Below, one piece after another: positions 15,285 through 38,810 of a stretch of 64,000 nt of DNA. Every line of letters starts with the position of its first letter. Position 1 is the stretch's first letter. Position numbers and translations under genes: made by a program. The notes below the pieces were generated by a model. It saw only the letters and a program-made list of their open reading frames with translations. It was not told the DNA's origin and ran no database searches. The DNA comes from a phage. The stretch lies in assembly GCA_020619395.1 (NCBI GenBank), contig GCA_020619395.1_4860.1. One strand, 5' to 3'.

Positions 15285-15812
15285 TTAAACGAATCCGTCC
15301 AGTTCACCGTTGGTGGTGCTCAGGTCAGTTTTAACGATTGGCTGCGTTACAGTATAAACTGCAAGGCTGGCAGGCTGGTATTTAATGTGGCCTTCTTTCA
15401 CCATAACAGTGATGATTTTCTCACCACTGTCGCCGTCCTCGCGTGAAATGGTGAGTTCAGACAATGCAAACGCATCTTCCGTTTTACCGGCGGCAATTAG
15501 ATCTGCGTTGACAAAAGCAAGCACTTCTTCATCGGTATCCCATTCTGCCTGGTCAGCGGTAACTGCTTTCGCACCGATGATGTTCAATGAATCGAGGCGG
15601 GTATAATGCAGCTCTTTCTCGCCAGTAAAGTTAGCGGATTCCGCGGTGGCAGTGATGGTGAGTTTGGAGTTGCGAGTGTCTCCAGAATCTGCTGGTGAAT
15701 AGTCAGCAACAGCGCCGAATGTAACGTCAGCAGAAGTTAACGGACTAGACAGTCCGCTGTTTGCAGCATTAAACAGCGCAACGAGTTGGTCTTTTGCAGA
15801 GATGACTGCCAT
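15285..15812 (-). CDS. Short member of fibre-module family (175 aa)
   Basis: N-terminal module (LVALFNAAN..RNSKLTITA..ELHYTRLDSL) plus C-terminal TNGELDGFV shared with C-type paralogs. Confidence 0.65.
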   Translation of the reverse strand: MAVISAKDQLVALFNAANSGLSSPLTSADVTFGAVADYSPADSGDTRNSKLTITATAESANFTGEKELHYTRLDSLNIIGAKAVTADQAEWDTDEEVLAFVNADLIAAGKTEDAFALSELTISREDGDSGEKIITVMVKEGHIKYQPASLAVYTVTQPIVKTDLSTTNGELDGFV

Positions 15813-18703: not shown

Positions 18704-20881
18704 TTACGATAACGGTATCGTTGGCCGCACCCACGGTTTAGGGGCAGATTTGGTATACGGATTACATTCCATCATTTTACCGAGATACGCATCGTAATAC
18801 ACGAAGCGATCGACATAGAACCTCTCCACCGGTGTACTACTGGTAGCCGATTTCACCCGGTTGCGTTCCACAGCGAGGCCAATCACCCCGGTAGGCGCGG
18901 GTTTTAGGGTGAACATTACCGCACGGTTGTAACGCCAAGTGTCGTGCACAATATCAAACTCCGATACACTGTGTGCCATGATACCAAACAATGTGGTGGC
19001 TGGTAAGTTGGCTACAGCATCGCCGTATGGTGTTCCCACCAAACCGCCGGGTATGTTTTGCTTTTTGAACAGCGTACCTGAAATAATCGTACCTAAGAAC
19101 TCCACAACTACAGGTTTGGTTGGGTCGGTGACTTTATCTATCCCATCCGCACTGGCCAATCGGTTGGCATCTAAATCTGCGAGGTAGTCGAGGAACTCTT
19201 GGTACTCGTCGGTGACATTCGGTTTCACCGTTCCGACGGATACCCAGTTGACGATACTTTTATTCCCACCGACGGCTTCGCCTGCCATCCCAGGGCGAGT
19301 CCATGACATCCCGTCTTCACGACCGTAGACATAGACCGGCGAGCCGGTAGCCGGGGTGTTCCATTGCTCGAACGCTGTATATCGTCCCGGCTGGCCCCAA
19401 TCGCCACCAGGACCGCCATAGTAGCGACTCTGGTAGCCGGTAAATTGTGCGACGACTAACTGGGTAGCACCGCCTTTGTCACGGGACCCAGCTAAGCCGT
19501 TACGGTTATTGGTGCCGCTGGGTACCGCCGCGCCTGGCCCGAGAGGCGCACCACCAGCTCCACCGATCTTGGTGGTGCTAAACGCATAGTAGTCGCCCCC
19601 ACCCCCACCTCCGGCGATGGTGCCGTAGTTTTCGATGGTGACTTTGCCGCGGAAGGCATCGGTAATGTGGATTGCGTCAGCTCCGTCTGCTGATGTGTTC
19701 GCAGGCAGAGAATAGACCATACCCGAACCACCACGACCAAGAATGGTTCCCCGGTTAACGAAGTTCCAAACCACCTCGCCAATTTGCGGCAATTCGTCGA
19801 TAACGAACGTCGGTTTCAGGTTGCTGTCGCGATAAACGAAAGCCCCCGCATCTACGGTCACGTTAACAAACAAACGCCCGCACGCCGCATGGTTGGTCAA
19901 CGTCGTGGCCCAGTAGCTGTCCGAAACTTGCGACGTAGTTGTGTAGTTCAGGTTAAGGGTTTGCTCGTTATCTTGATAGCGTGCCACATTCAACGTGGCA
20001 CTGCCCATGACTTTGTACGAACCCTCCACAGGTGCCAATTGCACTTGTCTTGGCCACTCGCCTGCCAGGTCCTCTACGGGAGCAATTTCGTTTACATCAA
20101 AAACACTCCGAATGCCGAGTGTCTCGATGGCCAGAGCATCATGCAGGCTACCGGTGAAATCATCCGGGACGTATGTGGTTTTGCCTGCATATGTCTCGAG
20201 TTTGTTACGTGAAAAGAACACATACTTCGTTCCAAACATCCCGCTCCCCGGTCTAGCGGTCAAAGCCACGACGCTGTTATACGCAGAGGTTTGGCCTATA
20301 TCCTCCGGGGACATCGGGGCGCTGACATCGACTTTATCAAGATCCACGATCCGTTTGGTTGCATTAGAGTAGAAGTTAATCCACTGCTGTTTATTCGCAG
20401 CCTTTAGCGTGAGAATGATGTTGGTAACAGTGTAGACGGTGTTGATATCCACGTCACCGTTTATCACATCTAGCGTTTGGCTGCCGTACCAGACAAGACT
20501 TGTCTGTTTCGCCTGGAACGTGATGCGCGCAGCATTGTTTGTCCAAGTGATAGGCAGGTCTTCAAAGTCGTCGGTTAAAAAGGTAATCCCCAGTAAAGTG
20601 TCTAAATGCGGCAACAGTTCGTGAATGGATGCACAAGTGGGAATGGCATCCAACTTAACCTTAGCGAAATAATCAGCAATATTTTGCTTCGTGACTTGGG
20701 CCGTAATTTGACCGTAATTTGAATACCCCGGACCCCCTGTCAGTGTGACGTCTAGGGTTTTTTCGTCACGATGCGCCACGGACACCAGGCGTACGTTAGC
20801 GGGGTCTACTGCTTTGGCGACCGCGTTTTTACGGTTGAGCGACCGAATCACGGTCGCCACTAAATCGGGAGTGTAGGACAT
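18704..20881 (-). CDS. Fibre-module family protein with Gly-rich region (725 aa), candidate receptor-binding protein
   Basis: N-terminal family module (RKNAVAKAVDPANV..YGQITAQV); AGGGGGGDYY..GGAGGAPLGPG Gly-rich block; C-terminal NPYTKSAPKPWVRP shared with 20896-22215. Confidence 0.65.
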   Translation of the reverse strand: MSYTPDLVATVIRSLNRKNAVAKAVDPANVRLVSVAHRDEKTLDVTLTGGPGYSNYGQITAQVTKQNIADYFAKVKLDAIPTCASIHELLPHLDTLLGITFLTDDFEDLPITWTNNAARITFQAKQTSLVWYGSQTLDVINGDVDINTVYTVTNIILTLKAANKQQWINFYSNATKRIVDLDKVDVSAPMSPEDIGQTSAYNSVVALTARPGSGMFGTKYVFFSRNKLETYAGKTTYVPDDFTGSLHDALAIETLGIRSVFDVNEIAPVEDLAGEWPRQVQLAPVEGSYKVMGSATLNVARYQDNEQTLNLNYTTTSQVSDSYWATTLTNHAACGRLFVNVTVDAGAFVYRDSNLKPTFVIDELPQIGEVVWNFVNRGTILGRGGSGMVYSLPANTSADGADAIHITDAFRGKVTIENYGTIAGGGGGGDYYAFSTTKIGGAGGAPLGPGAAVPSGTNNRNGLAGSRDKGGATQLVVAQFTGYQSRYYGGPGGDWGQPGRYTAFEQWNTPATGSPVYVYGREDGMSWTRPGMAGEAVGGNKSIVNWVSVGTVKPNVTDEYQEFLDYLADLDANRLASADGIDKVTDPTKPVVVEFLGTIISGTLFKKQNIPGGLVGTPYGDAVANLPATTLFGIMAHSVSEFDIVHDTWRYNRAVMFTLKPAPTGVIGLAVERNRVKSATSSTPVERFYVDRFVYYDAYLGKMMECNPYTKSAPKPWVRPTIPLS

Positions 20882-20895
20882 GGTGACACCTTAGT

Positions 20896-22215
20896 CTATA
20901 GCGGTGGATACCAAGGGACCGGGGCGGTTTTGCTATATGGACTGTAGACCATATAGCCGCCTTTGCTTGGGTCGTAATAGATGAAATAGTTACAGTAATT
21001 CGAGTAAATGCTCGTCATTTGTTTGGATTGGTATCCGTTACGGTATAGTCCCTGGTAAGTAATAGCTGATGTCGTGGTGGTGTAAGCAGTGTGGTACAGT
21101 ACCCGACGCCGGTTAGCAATACTTTCTTGGAACATTTCTTCGGTCGGAAACGCGTGTTGCATCAGCCGTCGAATACTCCCGGTACAGTATCGAGTGCCAT
21201 ACGGGGAACCCGTTAAATCATCCGCAGTTTCAGGCGATTCTGCCCGAGTCAACACGTACTCGTTTTGATACAACGTGACGCTCATCGAATTTGGGCTGGT
21301 TTCCCGGAAACTCATGTAACGCGCATAACGTTCGACGTCCTCTTCCTGCGCCAAATAGGCCACGTTATTTTTCGGACCAAAGTGCAAGAAGAACGGACGG
21401 CGGAGATTACCCATATCCTCAGGTGGCGTCAACTTCACGCAGTAATTGTACTCCCCACGCATATCAGGGTCTAAGCCTGGGTTGTTATTGCGTGTAGCGA
21501 CATACCCATAGAGGTCATACGGGTTATCAGTAGCAGCATTACCGATAGTGAACGGGATGCCCGACCATGCCGACAGCGCCGCGATGAACTGGGTCATGTA
21601 CGAGTTACTGTTTAGTCGCAGCGGGGTACCCATCGGGATATTGATTATCTGTTGGGTGTACATGCTCCAGTCGAGTCGATAGACCGTGCTGTAAACATCC
21701 ATGGGTTCCCAAGCTCCGGTTTCGGTGGTGTGGTACAAGTCGGCAAAGCTGGGCTCTTCACGAATAAAGCTAATAGGAATGTGACCCGTGAATGCGGGGT
21801 TATCCGATTTAATCGCCACCGTCCGATCGCCCGTTGCCACAGTGATCATTGCAAACTGGCTGTCAGGATACGTTAAATCGTCAGCAGTAAGCACCAGCCC
21901 ACAAGCTGCGGAAATCCGGTCGATGATGTCGCGGTAGGACGTCGCCCGATAAGGTACTTTAACCGGTACGCTGACGCCTTTAAAATACTGCGAAAGGTTT
22001 AAGCGGTCGTAGTAGATGTCCATCTTACCGCTGTAACCGCCACCCTGTAATCCGTTTACCACTATACGGCTGTTGCGGCCATCGCGCAAGGCATTGGTTA
22101 AAGGACCTTGTAATAACGCCACGTTGGTTGCGTTGAGTGGTTTCTTGAGCTGCGGGTTATCACGATTAATCTGATCCCAAACCAGCTGCATGACAGGTTT
22201 GTTATAGTTGATCAT
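20896..22215 (-). CDS. Fibre-module family protein (439 aa)
   Basis: N-terminus MINYNKPVMQLVWDQINRDNPQL..RNSRIVVNG..IYYDRLNLSQYF; C-terminal SPYSKTAPVPWYPPL. Confidence 0.65.
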   Translation of the reverse strand: MINYNKPVMQLVWDQINRDNPQLKKPLNATNVALLQGPLTNALRDGRNSRIVVNGLQGGGYSGKMDIYYDRLNLSQYFKGVSVPVKVPYRATSYRDIIDRISAACGLVLTADDLTYPDSQFAMITVATGDRTVAIKSDNPAFTGHIPISFIREEPSFADLYHTTETGAWEPMDVYSTVYRLDWSMYTQQIINIPMGTPLRLNSNSYMTQFIAALSAWSGIPFTIGNAATDNPYDLYGYVATRNNNPGLDPDMRGEYNYCVKLTPPEDMGNLRRPFFLHFGPKNNVAYLAQEEDVERYARYMSFRETSPNSMSVTLYQNEYVLTRAESPETADDLTGSPYGTRYCTGSIRRLMQHAFPTEEMFQESIANRRRVLYHTAYTTTTSAITYQGLYRNGYQSKQMTSIYSNYCNYFIYYDPSKGGYMVYSPYSKTAPVPWYPPL

Positions 22216-22225
22216 TGCAACGTCC

Positions 22226-22262: not shown

Positions 22263-22289
22263 GCTGTTATGGTGAAGTACGCTATCCCT

Positions 22290-22382
22290 TTAACTCCAGC
22301 TGATTCGACCTGCGTGTTGGGGATTATCCCGCTGAATGAGCCGACACAACAGCTCAAGTGCAGTGGATGAGTAAAACCCCAT
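22290..22382 (-). pseudogene. 30-codon remnant of a C-type fibre-module gene
   Basis: Translates to MGFYSSTALELLCRLIQRDNPQHAGRISWS*, matching the N-termini of the C genes (MGLYSAPELELLCQQVVRDNPELAGRIS..). AGGAG RBS retained; stop after codon 30. Confidence 0.6.
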
Positions 22383-22393
22383 ATTAGCTCCTG

Positions 22394-23296: not shown

Positions 23297-23299
23297 GTT

Positions 23300-24298: not shown

Positions 24299-24308
24299 CT
24301 GTTACTCC

Positions 24309-25751: not shown

Positions 25752-25762
25752 GAAGTCTCCTG

Positions 25763-26662: not shown

Positions 26663-26664
26663 GA

Positions 26665-27654
26665 TTAATCCTCGATAAGCTCGATTACTGGAATCCAAAT
26701 ACCGCCCACGGTCGCACCAGGGACATGTTGTATACGCTGGAGGTTATCCACGGTATCAGTGGAATCCGCCGCCGCCAATCCGCGCGTCAGCCCCAACTTA
26801 CGTTCTGGGTCAAACTCCTGACAATGCGCCCCACGGCCTGCCACCAGCGATCCATTTCCGAATATGCTGGAGTTCGACCACTTTATCAGGGACATCACTT
26901 TTTTCTTTTCTGGGAACCAGCTACTTATCCCATAGATGAGTCGGTTGTATTCGCTATCGGCAGTATACGGTGACGCGTCATGGAGTTTACCGTCCCACTG
27001 TGCATCGAGTGTCATGACCGGGCTTTCACTGTCGAGTGTTAAACCGCGCAGCAGGCGCATCCGATAGCGGTCACCCAACCACGTAAACTCCCCAGCCTGG
27101 TCAACGTCAGGTAAATCGCCATGACCGCCTTCCGGACCAGGTCCCGCCACACCGTACAGCAAACCCGCGTTATAAATCGCATCACGGCTATACAGCGTGT
27201 TGCCGTTCACACGAAGACCACTAAACAGATACAGAATTTTACCGTCTAGCTGGAACTTCATCAAGCCCGGCTTAACAGTTGGGTCGTATCCAGAAAGGGC
27301 CACAAACCCTGGCGGATAATCACCCGCGCTAGGTAATTCACCGTACGCCACGTACCCGTAATACGCAAAGCGGTCATCACCGTACTGTGGAGCCACGATG
27401 CCGATACCGCGACGGTTCTGAATTAGAATTGATTTCTGCGGACTGAACAGTGTCCGACTTCCCACTGTCACGGTGGTCATGTAGTAATACGTTGTCCCCA
27501 GTATCGCTGTTCGGTCAGTATACTCAGTTTCCCCGTTAGTGAACGTTGCCAGGGGTTCAGGTAATGCCGTACGCACCAGAGGTTTGGTGTCGCGGTACAG
27601 CTTCACGGTCGAAGCCCCAGGGTTATTGTTCGTCCAACGAATTGTAAAAGCCAT
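26665..27654 (-). CDS. Fibre-module paralog type B, triad 2 (329 aa)
   Basis: MAFTIRWTNNNPGASTVKLYRD.. homologous to the other B copies. Confidence 0.7.
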   Translation of the reverse strand: MAFTIRWTNNNPGASTVKLYRDTKPLVRTALPEPLATFTNGETEYTDRTAILGTTYYYMTTVTVGSRTLFSPQKSILIQNRRGIGIVAPQYGDDRFAYYGYVAYGELPSAGDYPPGFVALSGYDPTVKPGLMKFQLDGKILYLFSGLRVNGNTLYSRDAIYNAGLLYGVAGPGPEGGHGDLPDVDQAGEFTWLGDRYRMRLLRGLTLDSESPVMTLDAQWDGKLHDASPYTADSEYNRLIYGISSWFPEKKKVMSLIKWSNSSIFGNGSLVAGRGAHCQEFDPERKLGLTRGLAAADSTDTVDNLQRIQHVPGATVGGIWIPVIELIED

Positions 27655-27666
27655 TGTCGTTACCTC

Positions 27667-29163
27667 TTATTGGAATCCATCCAACTCACCGTTAGTATCG
27701 CCCAGAGTAATTTTTGAAGGTTGGGCGATTTGGTCAGTCGTGAGAATAATCGGTCTAATCTTAACGCTAGCCATGCCTGTTACCGCGACGGAATATGCAC
27801 GTTCATCATTGTCCGTCGTGGCAAGCAGAGGACGTGGTGAGTCTGATGACGCTTCCCGCAGCCAGGCAGGGGTGGCAGTTTCGGTGTTGTCGGTGTTGAA
27901 AACTAACGGACGTGGATTCGCTGCGGCGGAGGTTTCCGTAATAGGCACCACACGAAGCGATTCATTTTGGTCGATGTCCGTCAGAGTAACCACGGACGGT
28001 GCCCATGTTAGCTCTGCACCTTCGTCAATCAACGGCACAGGTTCATTGGCAACATCAAACATCTCCAGGATTGGCCAAAAGCCAGAAGAGGTGTAGATGT
28101 AGGTGTTTGAACGATAGCTCGCGCTGATAGACTGGTAATACGCTTGGTCGGCACCGAACTGGTGTCGTAACCACACGTAATCCAGGAAGTTAGCATCAGT
28201 CGTGCTAAGAGTTCCCCACTCCCCATATACGTTCACCGACCCCAATTTGCTGGTCAGTGACAGGATAGAGGTGATTGACGGCGGTTTACTCCAATCAGGC
28301 GCGGCGGCGTTCTCGGTGTAATACGGGATAGACATTCTGAAATAATGCGTTCCTTCATCATCCCGTTTTACCATGTATTTCAACTGTTCAACATCGACAG
28401 GTGTGTAAGTCGACTTCGGGCGAGGTCCTGCGTCTCCGGAATCAAATATTGCACCCTTGTTGTACAGGTCTGCCCAGGTAACGTTGCAAATCGCACGGGT
28501 CGGAACAAACACTACCGCCCCATTCAGAAAGAATTTGAGCCACTTGATAGCGTAGCGGTTAGGCCAGTTGGTGCCGTTATAAAGGGCATACACCATTTCA
28601 TCAGATGTGAATAACTCTTCCGCGCTTACCAGCCCAAAGAATCCGTATAACTCATTACCAGCCATTAATCCTTTTGGCCCAGGACCCGACTTCGGATACA
28701 TCGCAATCGGTTCGTAAACATAGGTCATCTTGCATGACCCGGTATAGCACAAGGAGTTAGCGTGCGCCGTCAGAGTTACAGTTTCCGGCGTAGCGTATTT
28801 CATTAATGCAACGTTTGGACTGGTGATATCACTCGCGGTTAAGTTCAACCCGTTCAATTCATTGAACGCCGGTAACGCTTCCGCATGGGTTTGTGCGCTA
28901 CGTGGAATACTCACCATATTCGGGCCAGACTTAAATAGACTGGCCAGATTCAACCGGTCGTAATATACCGTTATTTCCCCAGCAAATCCTTTACCGGGTT
29001 TTCCTACCAACGTAATCTGAGTGTTTCGTCCGTTAACGTTTTTCGCAACAGGAACACCCCTGACCCCAATGGAGTCAGGGGTGATTTTTCCTGCTAAACC
29101 GGGATTGTCACGCACAATTTGTTGGCAGAGCAGTTCCATTGAAGGTTCTGTATACAACCCCAT
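27667..29163 (-). CDS. Fibre-module paralog type C, triad 2 (498 aa)
   Basis: N-terminus about 75% identical to the triad-3 C copy; NPRPL/SPRPL repeats; C-terminal TNGELDGFQ. Confidence 0.7.
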   Translation of the reverse strand: MGLYTEPSMELLCQQIVRDNPGLAGKITPDSIGVRGVPVAKNVNGRNTQITLVGKPGKGFAGEITVYYDRLNLASLFKSGPNMVSIPRSAQTHAEALPAFNELNGLNLTASDITSPNVALMKYATPETVTLTAHANSLCYTGSCKMTYVYEPIAMYPKSGPGPKGLMAGNELYGFFGLVSAEELFTSDEMVYALYNGTNWPNRYAIKWLKFFLNGAVVFVPTRAICNVTWADLYNKGAIFDSGDAGPRPKSTYTPVDVEQLKYMVKRDDEGTHYFRMSIPYYTENAAAPDWSKPPSITSILSLTSKLGSVNVYGEWGTLSTTDANFLDYVWLRHQFGADQAYYQSISASYRSNTYIYTSSGFWPILEMFDVANEPVPLIDEGAELTWAPSVVTLTDIDQNESLRVVPITETSAAANPRPLVFNTDNTETATPAWLREASSDSPRPLLATTDNDERAYSVAVTGMASVKIRPIILTTDQIAQPSKITLGDTNGELDGFQ

Positions 29164-29176
29164 GGTATTTACTCCA

Positions 29177-30100
29177 TTACGGTAAGACTAATTCAAAAGC
29201 AAAGAATATCGTGGCCGAGTTCCCGACACCTGCGGTGTTACTAATCCCCATAGGCACGGTGCCATACGCATAAGCGAATATGTTGTTGCTCCACAAAGGA
29301 GCTAATACAGCGGCACCTGACTCATTCGGCTGCGCAGTCGCGCCTTGTCTTTCAAGTGAGTCAATCGCACCAAGACCGAGGGCTGCGTACTGTGCACCGA
29401 CAGGATACAAACGGCCCATTGTGTTTCGCCATTCACCGTTGTTGTAATCCTGTCCTGAGAGTGCCGCGTCGTACGGGACTGCGTAAGGTAATCGGATACG
29501 GTACGTACGACCATCCTTCGTGACCTTACAATCTTGTTTAGTCGCCGTGGCTCCCTGCGGAACAATACTTCCGACATCATCGGTCCCGTACATCATGCCG
29601 TACTGATACGCCATTTGTACCGAGTTGCTTTTCGAATGCATCGTCGCTGGGAAGAAGACAATTCGCCCACGGAAAATAAACTTGTGCCATTCCTGAGGGT
29701 CGTAAGTAAACATGTTTCCCTGCTGCGCGGTTAACATGAGTTTTAACTCGGCAGTATTAAAGAACTCGGTATTAGATACCGTACCGAAATAGCCTGACGC
29801 CCAATCGCCACGCAAAATAGTTTGTGGCCCCGGTCCAGTGTCCGGATAGAACCCTTGCGTAATCGGATTGCCGATAAGTCGTTCACTATCTTTCACAGCA
29901 GCTACCCAGTAACGATAAGTTGTATTCTTCGTCAGGGTATCGATATTATCTACGAACTCTACCGCGCTACCGGATAAGGTGGCGTGGGGTGTACCTGGGT
30001 TGTAAACGTCGATTGTTGCGTTCCATCCTTCCTTGCGGTAGATTTCAATCGCGGTAAGACCTTTGCTGGCTTGGGACGGCCAGCTTAACCGTATAGTCAT
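29177..30100 (-). CDS. Fibre-module paralog type A, triad 1 (307 aa)
   Basis: GPGPQTILRGDWASGYFG..EFF..HKFIFRGRIVFF central domain; AAGGGG RBS. Confidence 0.7.
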   Translation of the reverse strand: MTIRLSWPSQASKGLTAIEIYRKEGWNATIDVYNPGTPHATLSGSAVEFVDNIDTLTKNTTYRYWVAAVKDSERLIGNPITQGFYPDTGPGPQTILRGDWASGYFGTVSNTEFFNTAELKLMLTAQQGNMFTYDPQEWHKFIFRGRIVFFPATMHSKSNSVQMAYQYGMMYGTDDVGSIVPQGATATKQDCKVTKDGRTYRIRLPYAVPYDAALSGQDYNNGEWRNTMGRLYPVGAQYAALGLGAIDSLERQGATAQPNESGAAVLAPLWSNNIFAYAYGTVPMGISNTAGVGNSATIFFAFELVLP

Positions 30101-30109
30101 GACTGCCCC

Positions 30110-31108
30110 TTACTCGACCAGTTCAAAGATAGGGTAGTAGCGCCCTTTCGTGGTGGGTGATAAATAGTTTATACGCTGAATCGTGGATACGGGTGTTCCA
30201 CCGGCATTGTTAAAAATACCACGATGGAGCACACGGTCTTCCGCGGTATCGTGTTCCATACAGAGAACACCACCGCCGAAATACTGTGCCAAGGTTCCCA
30301 AAGTACCTTGCCCCAGATAAGTATAACCGATTGTTGCCCAGTTAGCCCAACGCTGTTTCTTCGGCACCTCGTTAACCATCGTGTAAAGTAAATCGTTATA
30401 CTCACACGGGTTGGTTAGAGAAGCGATTTCATCATGGGTTTTCCCATTATAGTCAGCTACGAAAGGATACGCAGGAGGCTCGCTAGACATCGTCAGGCCG
30501 CGAGGAAGACGCATGATGTACGTATCCCCTTTGTGGACTATCTTAGCGTCTTGTGGAGTGGCCGGTAGCGTTCCATGGCCGTTCTCTGGACCAGCATCGC
30601 CCGTACCATAGACTAAACCAGCTTGATAGAGGGAAGCCCAGTCCACAGGCGTATTCGGGAACTGCGACGTGCTAGATAGCATGTAATAGATCTTCCCGTT
30701 TCGGGTAAATTTATACAACGCCACACGATCGGTTAGTAGGTTAGGGAACATCGCCAAAAATGCAGGTGGCATTTGCGACGGAAGCCACTGTTCGTCGTAA
30801 GGAACCGCACCCATAAACCCTAAACGGTCGTCACCGTTTAGAATAGTCATTGGACCGATCCCACGCTTTATCTCAATGGTGTATTTCTGGCTAGACGATG
30901 CCACTGTTTTACCGTTGGCGGTTACCGTCAGAAGGTAATAATAGGTTGCGCCTGGTGTGGCGGTGGTATCACGCCATTCTGTCTCGCCATTTGAGAGCGT
31001 TGCAATCGGTTCAGGCAAAGCGCTTGGTGTGATATCTTTAACATCACGGTAGATTTTTACTACCGTAGGGATTACGTTTGGATTTTTCCAACGCAAAGTA
31101 AAAGACAT
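30110..31108 (-). CDS. Fibre-module paralog type B, triad 1 (332 aa)
   Basis: MSFTLRWKNPNVIPTVVKIYRD.. homologous to the other B copies. Confidence 0.7.
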   Translation of the reverse strand: MSFTLRWKNPNVIPTVVKIYRDVKDITPSALPEPIATLSNGETEWRDTTATPGATYYYLLTVTANGKTVASSSQKYTIEIKRGIGPMTILNGDDRLGFMGAVPYDEQWLPSQMPPAFLAMFPNLLTDRVALYKFTRNGKIYYMLSSTSQFPNTPVDWASLYQAGLVYGTGDAGPENGHGTLPATPQDAKIVHKGDTYIMRLPRGLTMSSEPPAYPFVADYNGKTHDEIASLTNPCEYNDLLYTMVNEVPKKQRWANWATIGYTYLGQGTLGTLAQYFGGGVLCMEHDTAEDRVLHRGIFNNAGGTPVSTIQRINYLSPTTKGRYYPIFELVE

Positions 31109-31119
31109 AGATGATACCT

Positions 31120-32532
31120 CTACTTAAAGCCGTCCAGTTCACCGTTAAGAGACGTTAACGTTGTCTTGTCAGGGGGCGTATACATTTCAGCGGTAGCCGC
31201 AATAGGTTGGAAGTCGACTGTCTTCGGCAGCATTAAAGCAGGCGGATGCAGTGCGAAACTGTTTTCTGAAGTAACAACTACCGGTTCGAAATCGGTAGTA
31301 TCCGGATTACCGAGCACTAACGGCTTGAGACTAAATGTGTTTTCTGCGGACACGCTGCACGGTTGGAGACTGTAATCTGCCGTACCGTGGATATCTTCTA
31401 AACCCAAGGTAACTGTGGACTTATCCACCAACTCCAGCACCGGGAACCAGTAGTAGTTGCCCGCACTCGATGATTTTTCTAAGTTTGTCCAACTTGCTCC
31501 AGACAACGTCGCCATGCGATGATTGGCGACGTTGGTCTTCAGTGTATCTTTCAATAAACAGAACAGCGTCCAGTAACTGTTAATCGGTTTGTCCCACGTT
31601 CCATTATACAGAAAGTTGAACATCTCAAACTCACTACCTGCTAACTCAGCGGCAGTTGGGGTGCCGCTGACGTATGGGTCTTTCCCGGCACTAGGTAGAC
31701 GAACGCGGAAGTAAAACCTTTTGTTGTCTGCGCCTGTAAAGCTAATGATGCGTCCCTGGTTAACGGGCGTCGCCGCAGGGTATTTACCATTATCGTCTGT
31801 TCCGTAAACGAGTCCGTTTGTATATAACGTATTCCAGGAGATGGAGCTAGCGACAGGACTGATCGGAAGGTAAATAACCCTACCCTGGTAAAAGAACTTG
31901 TACCAACCTTCGGCACCAGAATGTACCGGTGGTAACGCACCGGCCGATATAGTGGCATTAAGAAGTTGAGAGTGTGTAAACAACTCTGCAGTTCTGGTTG
32001 TTCCGAAATAACCCGCGATAGTGTTACCTTGCAGCAACGTTTTAGGGCCAGGTCCAGAATCGGGGTAAATTGCACCACTCGGGACGGTATAACGTATCGT
32101 TAAGCTGCCTGTAAACGCAGGGCAATTGCCTGAGATATTTAATTTCAACGTCTGCGGCGAAACGCTCGGTTTAGGTAAACTTGCGTCAGGTGACTGCAAA
32201 TCAGAAGCAACTAATGTAAGCCCCAATGCGTCGTTTATTGCAGGTAGCGCGTCTCGTACCGTTAAGACTGTATCTTTGATAGCCACAGTCGGCACAAAAT
32301 TAAATAAAGTGGCCAGGTTAATCCGGTCGTAGTACACGGTAACATTACCTTGTACACCTGTCCCTGGATACCCGGTGAAAACAGCTTTGGTGTTACGTTG
32401 GTTTAACGTAACTGAAGTTGGGCCACTGGTTAAAGCAGCGATAGCCGGCGTCAGCTTAACAACTAAATCAGGGTTATCCCGATTGACTTGGTCGTATACA
32501 AGCAGTGCCGACTCCTTCGAGTAAAATAGCAT
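31120..32532 (-). CDS. Fibre-module paralog type C, triad 1 (470 aa)
   Basis: VNRDNPDL..RNTKAVFTGYPGTG..VYYDRINLATLF N-terminal module; C-terminal LNGELDGFK. Confidence 0.7.
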   Translation of the reverse strand: MLFYSKESALLVYDQVNRDNPDLVVKLTPAIAALTSGPTSVTLNQRNTKAVFTGYPGTGVQGNVTVYYDRINLATLFNFVPTVAIKDTVLTVRDALPAINDALGLTLVASDLQSPDASLPKPSVSPQTLKLNISGNCPAFTGSLTIRYTVPSGAIYPDSGPGPKTLLQGNTIAGYFGTTRTAELFTHSQLLNATISAGALPPVHSGAEGWYKFFYQGRVIYLPISPVASSISWNTLYTNGLVYGTDDNGKYPAATPVNQGRIISFTGADNKRFYFRVRLPSAGKDPYVSGTPTAAELAGSEFEMFNFLYNGTWDKPINSYWTLFCLLKDTLKTNVANHRMATLSGASWTNLEKSSSAGNYYWFPVLELVDKSTVTLGLEDIHGTADYSLQPCSVSAENTFSLKPLVLGNPDTTDFEPVVVTSENSFALHPPALMLPKTVDFQPIAATAEMYTPPDKTTLTSLNGELDGFK

Positions 32533-32545: not shown

Positions 32546-32576
32546 CGCCAAAAGAGGGGGGCTCCGAAGAGCCCCT
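32546..32576 (-). terminator. Hairpin terminator between short-paralog genes and triad 1
   Basis: Minus-strand GGGGCTC-TTCG-GAGCCCC followed by CCTCTTTTGG. Confidence 0.45.
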
Positions 32577-32580: not shown

Positions 32581-33408
32581 TTAGCTGTTATAGTGGTAGT
32601 ACGCCACGCCTTTCACGCCTTCCTCATCGATACCCGTTTGGATAACCACGCGGTCGTACGATTTGTTAGCGAACTGAGCGGTGGATGTCGGCACATCCTG
32701 AACGGTGTTACTGTTCAGTGGCCCCGCGTAGTTCGGAATACCCAGGTCATCCAACACCTTACGCAAACCAGCCCACTGCGGTAGGCCAGAAGCATCTACT
32801 GTCAGTAGGTTTTTATACGCGGTAAAGTCAATACCGTACGTCAACAAATCAATACACTTCTTACCGAGAGACGGTGAAATAGGCTCTTGAATCGCATTCA
32901 AGACATCTGATTTCACCGAAGTGTCTAGTACCGGTAAACCACGGTTATAACGCAACGTCGCAGAACCGATATAAGCCGGAGATGTCGATAGCGCTGCAAT
33001 GGTCTGTGTATTGGTGTAATTTGGGGTATTGGCACCAAACAGTGAGTAGTTTTGGATATCGATTGCGGAGAAGTTTACTCCGTAAGTATCCAAGAGCACC
33101 GAAAAGGCTGAGTGGAGGTTGGGCGCGTCAAACGTGACGAACTGCGCCTGGACAGAAGGACCCCACGGCAATAACCGCGCTAAGTTCACACGGTCGTAGT
33201 AAACGGTGATTGCGTCTCGAAATCCGGAACCCTGAATACCGCGCAAGCGTGCCGACGTATTGCGGTTGTTGGAAGCTGCATTAACGGGAACCTGCGTCAC
33301 TTTCTCCACGTAGCAGTTTGCCGGCGACGCTTTAATAGGTAGGTTTGGGTTATCCCGGTTAATGAGGTCAAAGACCAACTCGTTTGACGGCTTAGCATAG
33401 TTGATCAT
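32581..33408 (-). CDS. Fibre-module family short paralog (275 aa)
   Basis: ATG 33408 (tracked TTG 33411). N-terminal module INRDNPNL..RNTSARLRGIQGSGF..VYYDRVNLARLL; C-terminal YYHYNS. Confidence 0.65.
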   Translation of the reverse strand: MINYAKPSNELVFDLINRDNPNLPIKASPANCYVEKVTQVPVNAASNNRNTSARLRGIQGSGFRDAITVYYDRVNLARLLPWGPSVQAQFVTFDAPNLHSAFSVLLDTYGVNFSAIDIQNYSLFGANTPNYTNTQTIAALSTSPAYIGSATLRYNRGLPVLDTSVKSDVLNAIQEPISPSLGKKCIDLLTYGIDFTAYKNLLTVDASGLPQWAGLRKVLDDLGIPNYAGPLNSNTVQDVPTSTAQFANKSYDRVVIQTGIDEEGVKGVAYYHYNS

Positions 33409-33411
33409 CAA

Positions 33412-34299
33412 TTATACCTCGCTTGGATCGTCCAGATCGTTGAACTGGAGATACAACGTTCCGACGATGGTGGTACAGGTAACAGGCAGTTTCAACACCA
33501 GCGCATACTTGTACTTCGCGTTTGTCGGCATTGCAACAGGGTCATTCAGACCAACGCTGATAACCTCCGCGCCCGCCAAACCGTAGGAAGCGGAGGTGGT
33601 CGCTACCCATGCAGTACCCGTGATATCTTTCAGCAGGTTAACCATATCCGTTAACGGCTGTCCGGACAGAATACCCGGCACGTATGCCAGCAACTCATCA
33701 CGGTATTTGGTGAAGTTGTACGGGTAGGAATAAACCTCTGCAATGACCGCAGTAACGGTTTCGGAACCCATCTGACCGTTCGGGTATTTCAGACCGGTCA
33801 GGACGTTAGTGGTGACCGCAGAGACTAACGACTCATCGCCTTTCACGACTTTAAATGTCGCCTGTCCAACCCAACCGATAGACTCAGGATGTGCAACAAC
33901 ACGCACAGTTCCTTCGGTCTTATCACCGTTCCATTCGATATCTGCGTCCTGCAGGTCAGCTTCTTCCAGAACAAAACCGTAACGTTGGTTCAGTCCAGGA
34001 ATGGCCGCATACAAGGTTTCGTTGGATGGGCCGATCGCCAACGTGTCACCAATCAGCACTAACAAGTCTTCGATTTTCATGCGGTTGTAGAAGACATTTT
34101 TCTTACCCGACCAGGTAGAGCCCGTTACCCCATCTGCCGTAATTTTAATTTGCGTGTTACGGTTAGTCAGCGTTTCCTTCTCCGTACCACGGATGTCCTT
34201 TGGCGAGGACCAGATGATGTCAGTCATCTTAACAGCAAGCGAGTTCTGTGCGTTCACTGCTGCCAACAGGACGTCTTTAGAAGGTTGATAAATAGCCAT
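33412..34299 (-). CDS. Fibre-module family short paralog (295 aa)
   Basis: N-terminal module (NRNTQIKITADGVTG..FYNRMKIEDLL); C-terminus LYLQFNDLDDPSEV. Confidence 0.65.
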   Translation of the reverse strand: MAIYQPSKDVLLAAVNAQNSLAVKMTDIIWSSPKDIRGTEKETLTNRNTQIKITADGVTGSTWSGKKNVFYNRMKIEDLLVLIGDTLAIGPSNETLYAAIPGLNQRYGFVLEEADLQDADIEWNGDKTEGTVRVVAHPESIGWVGQATFKVVKGDESLVSAVTTNVLTGLKYPNGQMGSETVTAVIAEVYSYPYNFTKYRDELLAYVPGILSGQPLTDMVNLLKDITGTAWVATTSASYGLAGAEVISVGLNDPVAMPTNAKYKYALVLKLPVTCTTIVGTLYLQFNDLDDPSEV

Positions 34300-34309
34300 T
34301 CGCTAATTC

Positions 34310-35149
34310 CTAGTTGTTGTAGTGCAACATACACTCGCCGATTACTTTCGGGTCGTTCTGAATGCCGGTAATCAGCAATACGTTATCGTACGCTTTATTG
34401 GCGGTCGCCAACTCACTCGTTTTGTAGCGGGTAATTGTGCAGTTCGTCGGATCAAACGACGGTACCCCACGTGCGACCAATGTGGCCATCAGATTGGACG
34501 TGTAACCCAAATCAAAGTTACTTCCTACGTCCATTCGCCCGTTCTTAAACGAGGCCATAACCTGCACTTCATCAGTAAAGTCTTCCCCGTACGTCAAGAA
34601 GCCCATGTATTTCTTACCAGTGCTTGCTGCTGCAGGGTGGTTCAAAGCCGACAAGATGTCGTTTACCACGAGGTCTTCGAGACTATTCTTACCCCGGATA
34701 GACATAAAGGTGATGCTGCCAGTGTATTGGATACAGCTAGCGTTAATGCGCATCGTGTTGTTTACGTTCAGATAAACGTATTGTTCTGGGATATCGTCTG
34801 CAACCAGGTTTAATCCATAACGACCGTTCAGGTTCTGCGCAAACGCAGTACGTTTCGACTCCACGTTCAACCAACCGTAGGCATTCGGTGCAGTTACCTG
34901 AGGTGTCATGTTCTTAAATAAGTCGTTCAGCGACAAGCGCTTATAACGGAACGTCTGAGGACCGATATAGCCACGACCTTGACGACCACGAATGATAATC
35001 TCAGTATTGGCACCGCTTGCTGTCGGTGTGATTGCTTTCGGCGTACCGATGATAGCATTGTCTAAACCCATCGGTAGAACAGCATCCGGGTTTTCGGCAT
35101 TAATCGCATCGTACAGATATTGTCGCTGAGACAGACTATATAAAGCCAT
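34310..35149 (-). CDS. Fibre-module family short paralog (279 aa)
   Basis: ATG 35149 (MALYSLSQ..) with GAGGAGG 5 nt upstream; tracked 35167 start would translate the RBS. C-terminal MLHYNN. Confidence 0.65.
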   Translation of the reverse strand: MALYSLSQRQYLYDAINAENPDAVLPMGLDNAIIGTPKAITPTASGANTEIIIRGRQGRGYIGPQTFRYKRLSLNDLFKNMTPQVTAPNAYGWLNVESKRTAFAQNLNGRYGLNLVADDIPEQYVYLNVNNTMRINASCIQYTGSITFMSIRGKNSLEDLVVNDILSALNHPAAASTGKKYMGFLTYGEDFTDEVQVMASFKNGRMDVGSNFDLGYTSNLMATLVARGVPSFDPTNCTITRYKTSELATANKAYDNVLLITGIQNDPKVIGECMLHYNN

Positions 35150-35167
35150 AATAGCCTCCTCGGCCAA

Positions 35168-35206
35168 AAAAGAAAGGAGTAGCCAGGAGGAGGATTTCCT
35201 CCTCCC
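35168..35206 (-). terminator. Hairpin terminator-like element
   Basis: GGAGGAGG-ATTT-CCTCCTCC stem-loop; U-run begins 9 nt downstream on minus strand. Confidence 0.35.
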
Positions 35207-35218
35207 AGCGAGGCCTAA

Positions 35219-36130
35219 TTAGGCATTAAAGTGCAGGTACATGACGCCCTGGAAGTTGGTGCACAGAGTGTCATCCAGCTGCAGCAGCAGAACCTGGTTG
35301 TAAGCAGTGTTTGCACCTTCAACCGGTTTCTTAGGATCGTCGCCTGAAGCAGTGCCATCGTCAGTAGTAGAACCAACGTACAACACGTTAGCACCTTTCA
35401 GGTTATAATCCGCAGGCTCATCAGATGCAACCCACAGTTCCGGCACAACTTTATTCAGCTCAACCGGGAATGCAGAGTCGCCAGCGATAACACCTTTCGC
35501 CTGTACTTTCAGGAATGCTGCGATTGCTGTGCAGTCTACACCGTAAGAGTAGATGTAGCCCTGACCCTTCGCTTCGCTTGGACCATCTGGGTAAACCAGG
35601 CCGTCGAGCTTGGTTTGTGTTACCACCAGACTCAGACGTTCACCAACCTGAGGCTTAGCACCGATTTTAACCGGGATGCTGCCCAGATATGCGTAGCAGT
35701 CTTCTTTGAAGGTAATGACATGGTCAACCGGTGCTGGGTCCGGATCGTTCGGGTTAGTCAGCGGCGGGTTGGTATTTTCCGGAATAGCCGCCGGAACGAT
35801 ATCGTCTTCGGTCAGCTTCAATCCATATTGGTTGTTCAGGGTCGTCAGCAGGTCTGTGGTGGTTTTCGGCAGTTTAACGTCGAGGTATGCTGTTACGTTA
35901 CGGAACAGCGCACCGCCTTCCAGGCGATTATAAGTCACGTCCTGAGTACCGATGTACCCGGAGTTCTTTTTCGCAGTCAGGGTCATGCTGGTATTGCGAT
36001 CGGCACCTCCATCGATAATAGGGGTCGGTGTGCCGAGCGTTATTTTAGAAAGTTCCAGTTCTGCGTCTGGGTTTTTCTCATTAATAAAATCCAGAACCAG
36101 CTGATCGGACGTTTTGTTTAAAGGTTTCAT
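35219..36130 (-). CDS. Fibre-module family short paralog (303 aa)
   Basis: N-terminal module (INEKNPDAEL..DRNTSMTLTAKKNSGYIG..TYNRLEGGALF); C-terminal MYLHFNA. Confidence 0.65.
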   Translation of the reverse strand: MKPLNKTSDQLVLDFINEKNPDAELELSKITLGTPTPIIDGGADRNTSMTLTAKKNSGYIGTQDVTYNRLEGGALFRNVTAYLDVKLPKTTTDLLTTLNNQYGLKLTEDDIVPAAIPENTNPPLTNPNDPDPAPVDHVITFKEDCYAYLGSIPVKIGAKPQVGERLSLVVTQTKLDGLVYPDGPSEAKGQGYIYSYGVDCTAIAAFLKVQAKGVIAGDSAFPVELNKVVPELWVASDEPADYNLKGANVLYVGSTTDDGTASGDDPKKPVEGANTAYNQVLLLQLDDTLCTNFQGVMYLHFNA

Positions 36131-36151
36131 TCTTACTTCCTTTACTCAGGA

Positions 36152-36997
36152 TTAATCAGGGTCGTTGTAGTGCAAATACAAACGCCCGCCAAAATTCAGA
36201 CAGTACAACGACAGCTCCACAATCAGCACGTTGTCGACTGCTGGGTTGGTTGGTAATTCCGCTTTGTTACGCCCGTTATAGACGACGACGGCTTCACGAA
36301 GGTTAAAGTCGATTGGGTTACGGTACGTTGTCCAGTTATCACCGGTGACCGTTTTGAGAATCTGTGCCAGACGTTCTGCGGTTATCGCAGCACCTAGTCG
36401 TTGAAATTCCTCCGCGAAATTATCAAAGCGCCAGGGATACGAATAAACTGCACCTTGACCGACCTTGATGTTAAAATACGGATACTCGTAAGGTGTTACT
36501 GTTAAGGGTTCGAAGTTTGCAGGAAGCAACGCATCGCCTGGTAACAGCTGTACCTGTTGTTGCCCTATCCAACCTAAAGAAGTGGGCGTGGCAATCAGAT
36601 CCACACGCCATGTCTTCCTGTCGATTTCGGTATTCACCACATCTGCAGGTTTAAGGCTGAGACCGTAATACTGGTTAATTAACCCGACCACGTCATGCAT
36701 CTGGTAAACGGCATCGAGACGTGCAGGAACACGTAGAGGTTGAATCCCGTCTGGGTCGGTAAACATGTCTGCGAAGTCAACACGATCGTAATACACGGTA
36801 GTGGCACCGATAGCATTAGCGGTGGCCAATGCCTGAATGCGCACCATCGCGTTATGACCATTGGCTTTTGCCAGGTCTTCGTCAGACGTCGGAATCGCAG
36901 GGACACCGAAAACCACATCTTCGACTTTTAAATCGAGATTGTTTTCGACGTTAACCTCCGCGATAATAATCTTTTCAGCAGTGGCTAAAAGTGGCAT
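36152..36997 (-). CDS. Fibre-module family short paralog (281 aa)
   Basis: Divergent N-terminal module ..TTVYYDRVDFADMF; C-terminal LYLHYNDPD. Confidence 0.6.
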   Translation of the reverse strand: MPLLATAEKIIIAEVNVENNLDLKVEDVVFGVPAIPTSDEDLAKANGHNAMVRIQALATANAIGATTVYYDRVDFADMFTDPDGIQPLRVPARLDAVYQMHDVVGLINQYYGLSLKPADVVNTEIDRKTWRVDLIATPTSLGWIGQQQVQLLPGDALLPANFEPLTVTPYEYPYFNIKVGQGAVYSYPWRFDNFAEEFQRLGAAITAERLAQILKTVTGDNWTTYRNPIDFNLREAVVVYNGRNKAELPTNPAVDNVLIVELSLYCLNFGGRLYLHYNDPD

Positions 36998-37007
36998 GTC
37001 AAAATCC

Positions 37008-37850
37008 TTATATCGGGAGATAGTGAAGGATGAGATTACCGGCGTAGTTGCTGTCCGCAGCTAGCTTGATAATCGCCACACGCTGATAATCGGGGTTGTA
37101 ACTATCGTTCGGTGTGACTGAAGTTATCCCCATAAATCGCGCACCTTGGAGTGCAATTTGTTCAGGTTGCGCAGTCGCCCCCGTCACATATGCAAACTTT
37201 AATGGCACCACTTCGTTCAGCAATTCAACATCCGCCGCGGTGATTGCGCGGTTGTAAGCCCAATCGGTAGTGAACTGTTTTTGCAGTTCAGTCCAATCGT
37301 AACCATACGCCACATACTCAGCCTGTGGTTTACTAGCAACCACGAACGGCGCGATAATTGCGCTGAGGTCAACATCCGTCACCACATCCGCCAAGTTCGG
37401 GAAGAACTTCGCAAAGCGTAAACGGAAACCACCTTGCCAGGCCAAGCAACCAGGCTTAATAGTCACATCGATTAACCAGCTTTCTCCCAAATCTTTTACT
37501 GACTGGTCAACGATATCGTCGGCAACTAAAGACAAGCCGTATTTCGCATTCAGAAACGGCAACAACTCAGAGAGTTTATTTACCGGGTCGGCAACGACTA
37601 CCGGTATTACGTTCCTGAACAGAATTTCCATTTCGATACGGTCGTATTCGAGCGTAACGTTGCCTTTGTAGCCCTTGCCGTTCAACCCGTATAAGAGCAC
37701 ACGCGTATTCCGGTCAGCGCCAGGCGTTTGGACAGACTCAGGGAAGCCAGTTGCAACCTGCTCCCATGTGAGTGGATTGGCCGTTAATCCGTTCTGTCGG
37801 TTAATAGCATCTAACAACATCTCTTTCGAGGGCTTATCGTAAATAGACAC
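37008..37850 (-). CDS. Fibre-module family short paralog (280 aa)
   Basis: GTG start with AGGAGG 8 nt upstream. INRQNGL..DRNTRVLLYGLNGKGYKG..EYDRIEMEILF; C-terminal LILHYLPI. Confidence 0.65.
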   Translation of the reverse strand: MSIYDKPSKEMLLDAINRQNGLTANPLTWEQVATGFPESVQTPGADRNTRVLLYGLNGKGYKGNVTLEYDRIEMEILFRNVIPVVVADPVNKLSELLPFLNAKYGLSLVADDIVDQSVKDLGESWLIDVTIKPGCLAWQGGFRLRFAKFFPNLADVVTDVDLSAIIAPFVVASKPQAEYVAYGYDWTELQKQFTTDWAYNRAITAADVELLNEVVPLKFAYVTGATAQPEQIALQGARFMGITSVTPNDSYNPDYQRVAIIKLAADSNYAGNLILHYLPI

Positions 37851-37860
37851 CTATACCCTC

Positions 37861-38658
37861 CTAGTTGTTAAAGTGTAGGTTGAGGCTGCCCTGGAAGTTC
37901 GTACATTTATCGGTCAGTTGCACTGACACGACTTTCGCGAACGCCGTATTTGCTCCCGGCAAGTCTGCAGGTACGCCGTCGAATACGACAGTGGCACCAC
38001 GCAGGTTATACGGGGATGGGGTATCTTCAGCTACCCAAATCTCAGGAACACATTTGTTGAGTTCGATTGCCAACGCCGTGTCATCTACCTCGATACCGAC
38101 CGCTAAGAGGCTCAGGAAACGAGAGATGTGGCTACAATCGATGTCACGCGAATAGATATACGCCTGACCCAACTGGATGTCCTGGTGATCCGGGTACAGA
38201 AGACCGCTCAACTCTGTATTGGTTACTACTTCTGCCAGAGGTGTAGCAGGTTTCAGCTCGATGACCGCTTGACTTCGCCACTCGTGGGAAGTTTCAACAG
38301 CAACGACTGTGTGCGTCTGTCCATCAATGGGGTTATCTTCGATATCCTCAGGTAAGATAGACAGATTAAAACGCTCGTTAATCGCCGCGAGTAAGTCGTG
38401 CGTGGTTTGCACGTCCTCGTCTCCAAAGGCAACATCGCCTTTAAGGTAGTCCTCTAATGGACGACGATGGTAGTCCACAATCACTTGCGTACCTTCATCA
38501 CCGCGCATCTTCGAGGTAAGGACTACCTCCGAATCACGACCGTCTACTGACACAACCTCCGGCAGTCCGATATCAACATCGTCAAAGGTAAGCGGTGGGC
38601 TTATCTTATTCTCTTCGTTGATGAGTTTTAGCAGATTCTGTTTTGAAGTAAAAGACAT
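37861..38658 (-). CDS. Fibre-module family short paralog, first gene of array (265 aa)
   Basis: ATG 38658 preceded by palindrome TTAACTCGAGTTAA and no clear SD; C-terminal LNLHFNN. Confidence 0.6.
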   Translation of the reverse strand: MSFTSKQNLLKLINEENKISPPLTFDDVDIGLPEVVSVDGRDSEVVLTSKMRGDEGTQVIVDYHRRPLEDYLKGDVAFGDEDVQTTHDLLAAINERFNLSILPEDIEDNPIDGQTHTVVAVETSHEWRSQAVIELKPATPLAEVVTNTELSGLLYPDHQDIQLGQAYIYSRDIDCSHISRFLSLLAVGIEVDDTALAIELNKCVPEIWVAEDTPSPYNLRGATVVFDGVPADLPGANTAFAKVVSVQLTDKCTNFQGSLNLHFNN

Positions 38659-38760
38659 CGCGTTAACTCGAGTTAAGGGATTATTGAGGTCGTAAGATTT
38701 TTAGACCCCCTGCCAGCATATTAAAAGCGTAGTGCGTACCAGAATCTGAACAAGAGCAAA

Positions 38761-38810
38761 CAAAAAAAAAGAAAAGGAAACAAAAAAAGAAGGGGAGCCG
38801 AAGCTCCCTT
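38761..38810 (-). terminator. Strong rho-independent terminator upstream of the paralog array
   Basis: Minus-strand GGGAGC-TTCG-GCTCCC hairpin followed by a long T-rich run (CTTCTTTTTTTGTTTCCTTTTCTTTTTTTTT). Confidence 0.7.

Follow-up and report, generated by a model that had tools for sequence, protein, structure and literature searches.

Proteins gp138-gp154 of Salmonella phage SPN3US (genus Seoulvirus, family Chimalliviridae) were grouped by the workers on this phage as one 17-member family (PMC5105663), which was later named Paralog family B (PMC5694885). In phage phiKZ, gp127 was placed at the distal end of the gp139 band, on the outer baseplate (PMC13250141). A preprint on phage Goslar (10.64898/2026.04.21.720040) reports that proteins of Pfam family DUF7941 are among the most abundant of the virion, that AlphaFold 3 predicts them to dock head-to-tail, with the linker and C-terminal domain of one subunit on the following subunit's N-terminal domain, that purified Goslar gp22 forms filaments and that a phiKZ gp126-gp127 heterodimer fits an unexplained baseplate density; for host recognition, its authors put forward a "DUF7941 fibre cloud" with universal anchoring on the baseplate. 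Here we consider seven back-to-back open reading frames (ORFs) of 265-303 amino acids (aa) each, on the minus strand at 32581-38658 of a 64,000-nucleotide stretch of phage DNA (contig GCA_020619395.1_4860.1 of GenBank assembly GCA_020619395.1; hereafter the window). This array is already known, as SPN3US Paralog family B since 2016, as Pfam DUF7941 and through the functional proposal of 2026, and its description here is the rediscovery of a published family that adds no new kind of system. The data argue for seven fixed, non-redundant subunits and against diversification, and the point of real interest is that the proteomics of tailless SPN3US mutants conflicts with a baseplate-only model.

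Seven full-length DUF7941 paralogs

At the nucleotide level, the 6.1-kb array has 99.4% identity with the Salmonella SPFM phages and with Escherichia phage Lh1B, and 98.8% with SPN3US. The phage is an SPN3US-type chimallivirus (Seoulvirus), and the seven genes are its orthologs of gp138-gp144. The calculated masses (Table 1) equal the published values for SPN3US gp138-gp144, and those of the gp145, gp154, gp155 and gp160 orthologs of the window likewise match the SPN3US values exactly. An earlier description of the locus, made from the letters and their ORFs (the original prediction), had listed seven consecutive genes of 265-303 aa with their C-terminal endings; both agree exactly with the ORF listing, in which the spans are those of Table 1 except for gp142 (34310-35167) and gp144 (32581-33411). 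For these two genes the true starts are likely ATG 35149 and ATG 33408, each with a GAGG-type ribosome-binding site, and the sizes in Table 1 are those after start correction. The most likely start of gp139 is GTG 37850, which has an AGGAGG ribosome-binding site in front; the GTG start and the N-terminus VSIY(D/N)KPS are kept in six phages, and the N-terminus read from this codon (MSIYDKPSKE, 37821-37850, minus strand) aligns with all paralogs. The SPN3US, SPLA3 and ChrisDB records place this start 10 codons downstream of the GTG. Among the records of SPFM1, 5, 8, 9, 10, 14, 15 and 20, several have a shortened or frameshifted gp141 gene (184-312 aa, partial query matches); the shortened versions are probably assembly errors and not real variants.

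Each of the seven proteins matches Pfam DUF7941 (PF25613, a profile of 276 positions) end to end, from profile position 1 (or 5) to 274 or 276, with 229-293 bits against a cutoff of 27, and all match PHROG 1037 (phrog_1037, E-values 1e-75 to 1e-93). They align over their full length with pairwise identities of 17-37% and have in common a module at the N-terminus and, at the C-terminus, a G-x-L-x-L-H-(Y/F)-N strand, so that the claim of paralogs sharing both ends is borne out by the full-length alignment and by the end-to-end DUF7941 matches. Family relatives were sought by tblastn against phage records; all organism-named matches listed from this search and from BFVD are phiKZ-related jumbo phages, which fits a restriction of the family to chimalliviruses. 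The number of full-length copies is one in Moabite, four in the Goslar region examined, nine in CR5 and seven here.

The motif [LY][HQ][YF][NL] occurs exactly once in each of the seven proteins, always within the last 12 residues. It was found at the end of never more than two of the seven in 20,000 composition-preserving shuffles, and at the end of only one of the 95 other window ORFs of at least 100 aa. The same terminal motif is present in homologs from CR5 (nine of nine) and Moabite, in phiKZ gp127 and in Goslar gp33. Given this rarity in shuffles and in other ORFs, together with its presence in homologs, the similarity of the termini is positional and not compositional.

We built an AlphaFold2 (AF2) model of gp141 from 30 orthologs and paralogs (mean predicted local distance difference test score, pLDDT, 84; predicted template modelling score 0.52). 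Two domains are confident (pLDDT of about 85-95), one N-terminal at residues 1-158 and one C-terminal at 201-303, and residues 161-200 link them at pLDDT 51-62; the model thus bears out the three-part architecture of the family: a globular N-terminal domain, a flexible linker and a globular C-terminal domain, of which the L-H-(Y/F)-N motif forms the last beta-strand. The fold of the N-terminal domain is that of phiKZ gp127, the experimentally placed member of the family. This baseplate protein is the only structural relative of the seven, and the family profile matches it in PDB 9xqd (E-value 8.6e-23), the terminal ...GRLLIHYN included. In BFVD, the fold occurs as N-terminal-domain-only proteins, as full-length proteins and as fusions in which the N-terminal domain is joined to a protein with the annotation tail fibre (Moabite) or tail protein (Goslar).

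Constraint on the ends, the linker and the loops

Identity between the paralogs is 0.31-0.33 at the two ends and 0.20-0.24 elsewhere, and to this extent the middles of the proteins do diverge, as the original prediction had it; the statement is overstated, as conserved islands lie between the ends, at residues 61-70, 101-110, 191-200 and 271-280 of gp141, and reach the same level as the ends. Nine alignment columns are invariant across the seven paralogs, and two of them (L166 and P181) belong to the central linker, in the motif L..VT...L.GL.YP ... Q..Y.Y. Of the 42 linker columns, 9 are conserved at 90% or more among the 30 orthologs and paralogs, as are 16 of the 158 columns of the N-terminal domain and 11 of the 103 of the C-terminal one, so that near-invariant positions are twice as dense in the linker as in the folded domains. 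A conserved segment that is predicted to be unstructured is the pattern expected of one that folds on a partner, and fits a docking peptide. What is truly variable between the paralogs is three indel-rich loops, at gp141 residues 76-90, 121-135 and 258-272.

The same seven genes are found, in conserved order, in SPAsTU, SPLA3 and the Erwinia Machinavirus phages ChrisDB and pEa_SNUABM_4. Ortholog lengths are equal to the codon, with the single exception of gp138, which differs by one codon in the Erwinia phages, and six of the seven ortholog sets are without indels. The ratio of nonsynonymous to synonymous substitution rates (dN/dS) is 0.04-0.14 wherever dS is not saturated. Identity within orthologs is flat along the protein (0.67-0.97 per 10-residue bin), the loops that vary between paralogs included: the paralog-variable segments 121-140 and 251-270 of gp141 have an ortholog conservation of 0.74-0.84, the same as the rest of the protein. 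Repeats in the DNA of the array are only 38-46 nucleotides (nt) long at 61-79% identity, lie at conserved motifs and give no sign of recent gene conversion or cassette exchange; the array locus has no template/variable repeat pair and no near-identical cassettes, no search aimed at a reverse transcriptase having been made. The identical lengths, few indels, low dN/dS, flat ortholog identity and lack of long repeats point to seven paralogs that are ancient, individually constrained and non-redundant, and under purifying selection. In what we take as the best explanation, the conserved ends probably reflect constraints of fold and interface and do not serve to frame variable loops.

Over the array, SPLA3 and the window agree at 98-100% identity outside a single patch (window 32680-33880), where identity falls to 72-87%. 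The patch runs from about residue 183 of gp143 (linker and C-terminal domain) to about residue 180 of gp144 (N-terminal domain and linker), and dS for SPLA3 is 1.4 in gp144, compared with 0.02-0.04 in the other five genes. The patch is a recombinant replacement and covers one putative subunit-subunit interface.

The original prediction had gone further and seen in the array a conserved structural scaffold with variable cores and exchangeable specificity loops, a second diversification family; on this view, the family would diversify to vary host specificity. The three indel-rich loops, which differ strongly between paralogs, the recombinant patch of SPLA3 over gp143-gp144 and a copy number that varies by genus (at least four being counted for Goslar) all speak for such a family. 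Among orthologs, however, those loops are no less conserved than other parts of the protein, the DUF7941 matches cover the full profile and the centre of the protein is its densest near-invariant cluster, which does not agree with variable cores; and genes of the same lengths from Salmonella to Erwinia phages, the low dN/dS and short, diverged repeats, with neither cassettes nor gene conversion, do not agree with diversification. This explanation is already largely refuted and we regard it as highly improbable. What stands of the scaffold is a genuine family of structural (virion) proteins with conserved ends; the frame around a variable core does not.

Putative filaments and their site on the virion

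We consider it rather probable that the seven proteins are head-to-tail polymerising subunits of external host-recognition filaments, capped by relatives that bear adhesins. This proposal follows the Goslar preprint and draws further on the conserved unstructured linker, on the N-terminal domain fused to a receptor adhesin and on the one-to-one conservation of the seven subunits. The linker and C-terminal domain of one subunit would dock onto the following subunit's N-terminal domain, and subunits would chain in this way into long flexible filaments outside the particle. Chains would be extended by the seven full-length paralogs, with gp141 as major repeating unit and the rest as lower-copy subunits at specific positions. 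Relatives that have the N-terminal domain only (the A proteins of the neighbouring gene triads, gp154, gp155 and gp160) could accept a subunit and could not extend the chain, and would thus form caps that present host-binding modules; gp155, and probably the triad A proteins, would show adhesin modules. The whole set would be a host-recognition fibre system for a phage whose receptor is reported, for SPN3US, to be the flagellum (PMC11428620).

All seven proteins were detected in SPN3US virions by mass spectrometry, with 54-94% sequence coverage, and spectral counts per mass (SC/M) were 9.39 for gp141, 9.46 for gp160, 3.70 for gp143, 2.77 for gp144, 2.11 for gp142 and about 1.2-1.3 for gp138-140; gp141 is the most abundant of the seven and about equal to the tail sheath, which has SC/M 8.84 at about 264 copies (PMC5694885 supplement). 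A hidden Markov model (HMM) built from the seven paralogs and run on the window proteins found the N-terminal domain without the C-terminal domain in six further genes (Table 1), and the seven array genes are the only family members that have the C-terminal domain. One of the six encodes gp155, in which Pfam GP38 (PF05268) matches residues 373-553 with 66 bits against a cutoff of 25 and which phmmer matches to the receptor-recognition protein gp38 of Salmonella phage S16 (PDB 6f45_D), with the glycine-rich motifs aligned. In this phage, gp155 is thus a direct tie between the DUF7941 family and a receptor adhesin of the gp38 type. RefSeq has gp155 as a hypothetical protein, and in the SPN3US papers it counts as a "head" protein and not as a member of family B. 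The domain is also present in all three triad A genes, so the family is not distinct from the A/B/C triads, as the original prediction had supposed; gp138-gp154 had indeed already been treated as one family (PMC5105663).

Several points weigh against filaments on the baseplate, or against filaments altogether. Head-to-tail docking is here extrapolated from Goslar proteins of about 25% identity and from the conservation pattern; the SC/M ratios (1.2 to 9.4) are rough and by themselves no proof of an ordered heteropolymer; no filaments are reported on SPN3US micrographs, as far as the SPN3US literature was accessible; and no homolog of phiKZ gp139, gp128, gp130 or gp157 was found in the window with Moabite and Goslar proteins as queries. 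In two independent tailless SPN3US mutants, 64_112(am27) and 255(am107), the normalised levels of family B match or exceed those of the wild type, whereas the baseplate/fibre proteins gp168-170 have disappeared or are down more than 10-fold (PMC5105663, PMC5694885, PMC10052503). The presence of family B on tailless heads does not fit anchoring on the baseplate alone, and the text of the Goslar preprint (10.64898/2026.04.21.720040) nowhere mentions SPN3US or its tailless mutants. Because of this retention, family B is put among the head proteins in the SPN3US papers and is even named there as a candidate for ejection (PMC5105663, PMC5694885, PMC10052503). The same "head" class holds gp155 with its gp38-type adhesin, and since an adhesin inside the capsid makes little sense, we read "head" as "independent of the tail". 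Either the filaments attach to the capsid or neck in the SPN3US lineage, or they tangle with heads during purification. Settling the attachment site would clarify how flagellum-dependent jumbo phages find their host.

"Hairy" or whisker-like fibres on SPFM and Erwinia jumbo phages, a possible visible counterpart of the filaments, are not borne out: the SPFM and RisingSun/Joad papers describe none, and the "hairy" phages of the literature, CBB and phAPEC6, are not chimalliviruses.

Taken literally, the "head" label would make the paralogs internal head or ejection proteins, packaged in the capsid with the DNA and acting after injection. In the SPN3US literature gp141, gp143 and gp160 are tentatively labelled "Head ejection?", family B is present in caesium chloride-purified tailless particles of both mutants at levels equal to or above wild type, and the copy numbers of gp141 and gp160 are high, comparable to those of other internal proteins. 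We find this very doubtful, since the phiKZ homolog gp127 is modelled on the exterior of the baseplate, filaments form in vitro from a Goslar homolog, gp155 has the N-terminal domain joined to the gp38 adhesin, Moabite and Goslar have it joined to proteins annotated as tail fibre or tail protein, and gp155 itself is counted as "head", so that the label means only "not tail-dependent". The seven have no match to PF12699, the family A internal head protein, at E-values up to 1, and none of them is among the protease-processed SPN3US proteins (SPN3US proteomics papers, including PMC5694885).

A variant that keeps the head-to-tail filaments would seat them on the capsid or neck, and not on the peripheral baseplate, where they would catch flagella, in parallel with the head filament of phiCbK and the capsid fibres of 7-7-1. 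That the two tailless mutants keep the whole family and the adhesin-bearing gp155 while gp168-170 are lost or more than 10-fold reduced, that the reported receptor is the flagellum, and that homologs of the phiKZ baseplate partners are not neighbours of the array in the window all speak for such a seat. We nevertheless rate it as rather unlikely: the sole structural localisation of a family member is the phiKZ baseplate, the Moabite and Goslar genes flank a homolog of the phiKZ baseplate band protein gp139, the family B member gp237 has been re-assigned to the tail, and self-assembling filaments could tangle with heads and co-purify. A bolder form, which we hold to be quite unlikely, adds to the head or neck seat an ordered heteropolymer in which the subunit order is the gene order (gp138 to gp144, then the adhesin cap); each interface, made of the C-terminal half of gene n and the N-terminal half of gene n+1, would then be encoded contiguously and be exchangeable as a unit. 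It is hinted at by the retention of the whole family and of the gp38-like gp155 on tailless heads, by the single SPLA3 patch, which spans the gp143 linker and C-terminal domain and the gp144 N-terminal domain and linker, and by the one-to-one conservation of seven non-redundant paralogs. If true, the array would encode a flagellum-catching head-fibre system and would contradict the universal baseplate seat of DUF7941 proteins.

Flanking features and comparison with known systems

Conserved terminator hairpins on both sides of the array (Table 1) suggest that the seven genes form their own transcription unit. A hairpin with a T-run is present at both bracketing positions in SPAsTU, ChrisDB and SNUABM_4, with stems that differ in sequence by compensatory change. 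The 21-nt motif upstream of gp138 does not differ between the Seoulvirus loci of Salmonella phages and the Machinavirus loci of Erwinia phages. It occurs only once in the window, where chance would give 0 matches, and may be a phage-RNA-polymerase promoter or the 5' end of the transcript of the seven-gene unit. The hairpin after gp141 has one and the same stem throughout the six Salmonella and Erwinia phages that were compared, the loop alone varying, and is a possible internal attenuator or RNA-stabilising element. A scan for sigma-70 promoters gave no more sites than in shuffled sequence, which was to be expected of a phage with RNA polymerases of its own.

Table 1. The seven array genes, other carriers of the DUF7941 N-terminal domain and transcription signals, with their positions in the window
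Feature	Coordinates	Strand	Description
SPN3US gp138 ortholog	37861..38658	-	265 aa, 29.2 kDa, full-length DUF7941; ends NLHFNN; PF25613 229 bits, profile positions 5-276
SPN3US gp139 ortholog	37008..37850	-	280 aa from GTG, 29.9/31.0 kDa, full-length DUF7941; ends ILHYLPI; Pfam 239 bits
SPN3US gp140 ortholog	36152..36997	-	281 aa, 31.4 kDa, full-length DUF7941; ends YLHYNDPD
SPN3US gp141 ortholog	35219..36130	-	303 aa, 32.6 kDa, full-length DUF7941; ends YLHFNA; likely major repeating subunit
SPN3US gp142 ortholog	34310..35149	-	279 aa from ATG 35149, 30.8 kDa, full-length DUF7941; ends MLHYNN; longest ORF starts TTG 35167
SPN3US gp143 ortholog	33412..34299	-	295 aa, 31.9 kDa, full-length DUF7941; ends LQFNDLDDPSEV; LQFN then 8-residue acidic tail
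SPN3US gp144 ortholog	32581..33408	-	275 aa, 30.0 kDa, full-length DUF7941; ends YYHYNS
Triad A gene, SPN3US gp145	31120..32532	-	470 aa; DUF7941 N-terminal domain (residues 1-150) and other C-terminal domains; profile 1-153, E-value 1.6e-31
Other triad A genes	27667-29163 and 24309-25751	-	Same architecture; HMM scan
SPN3US gp154	20896..22215	-	439 aa; DUF7941 N-terminal domain and start of linker, then unrelated C-terminal part; HMM scan
SPN3US gp155	18704..20881	-	725 aa, 78.3 kDa; two tandem DUF7941 N-terminal domains (11-153, 176-304) and gp38-type tail-fibre adhesin domain
SPN3US gp160	15285..15812	-	175 aa, 18.5 kDa; DUF7941 N-terminal domain only; highly abundant in virions (SC/M 9.46)
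Terminator-like hairpin GGGAGC-TTCG-GCTCCC and T-run	38793..38808	-	Closes upstream unit just before array
21-nt motif TTTAATATGCTGGCAGGGGGT	38705..38725	-	47-67 nt upstream of gp138 ATG
Perfect 12-bp hairpin GCTGGGAGGAGG-AAAT-CCTCCTCCTGGC and T-run	35182..35209	-	Directly after gp141 stop codon
Terminator-like hairpin GGGGCTC-TTCG-GAGCCCC and T-run	32558..32575	-	Directly after gp144 stop; parts array from first triad

The triad A protein gp145 is a candidate chain end or cap. In its AF2 model the N-terminal domain has the same order of secondary-structure elements as that of gp141 and is the only confident part, the rest being at pLDDT 30-70. In the triads (22394-32532, minus strand), the A proteins consist of the DUF7941 N-terminal domain, a domain of about 220 aa (GPGP...GYFG...YGTDD...P.ELV) and a C-terminal tail ending in NGELDGF. 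The 220-aa domain is common to the A, B and C proteins, and AF2 is unreliable for it (pLDDT 30-70); the B and C proteins have a short N-terminal module of their own (IYRD...TYRY) in place of the DUF7941 domain. A DUF1353 protein (17078-17719, minus strand) and a DUF4376 protein (14532-15203, plus strand) are encoded close to gp160 and the endolysin gene, with the DUF7941 cluster on one side and large fibre genes like that of phiKZ gp131 (15-8521) on the other. In the more distant chimalliviruses Moabite (17343-23695) and Goslar (17467-23557), the DUF7941 genes lie beside the portal gene and directly flank a homolog of phiKZ gp139, which forms the baseplate band and is in contact with gp127; the window lacks this synteny.

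Closest to the array come SPN3US gp138-144 (the same genes), then phiKZ gp126/gp127 and then Goslar gp22/gp23. The SPN3US genes (Paralog family B; Thomas et al. 2016, Ali et al. 2017) have the same order, lengths and masses at the nucleotide identity of 98.8% and differ by point substitutions only; the SPN3US papers describe head proteins of unknown function, leave gp155 outside the family and begin gp139 at a downstream ATG. Identity to phiKZ gp127 (PDB 9xqd) is about 20%, and phiKZ has at least three family members, compared with at least 13 carriers of the N-terminal domain in this window; phiKZ gp127 has its place beside gp139 in the outer baseplate, whereas tailless heads keep the SPN3US proteins through purification. 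With Goslar gp22/gp23, the seven share the succession of N-terminal domain, disordered linker and C-terminal domain and very high copy numbers. Both phages have an abundant truncated form beside the full-length one (Goslar gp23, here gp160), and in Goslar as here the N-terminal domain is fused in relatives to host-recognition domains, which are carbohydrate-binding, glycosidase and leucine-rich repeat (LRR) domains in Goslar and a gp38-type adhesin here. Identity to the Goslar proteins is about 25%, the Goslar region examined has four full-length copies as opposed to seven here, and filament formation has been shown for Goslar gp22 only.

Type 1 (chaperone-usher) pili are built of a FimA rod, FimF/FimG adaptors and a FimH tip adhesin, each subunit donating a segment to the next. 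The array has no sequence or fold relationship with these pili, no chaperone or usher is involved, and docking is here a proposal; the likeness would be one of functional analogy and not of homology. The proposed logic would be similar, with a segment passed from each subunit to the next, an abundant major subunit, low-copy adaptor paralogs and a tip made of a subunit-like domain joined to an adhesin, all encoded in one cluster.

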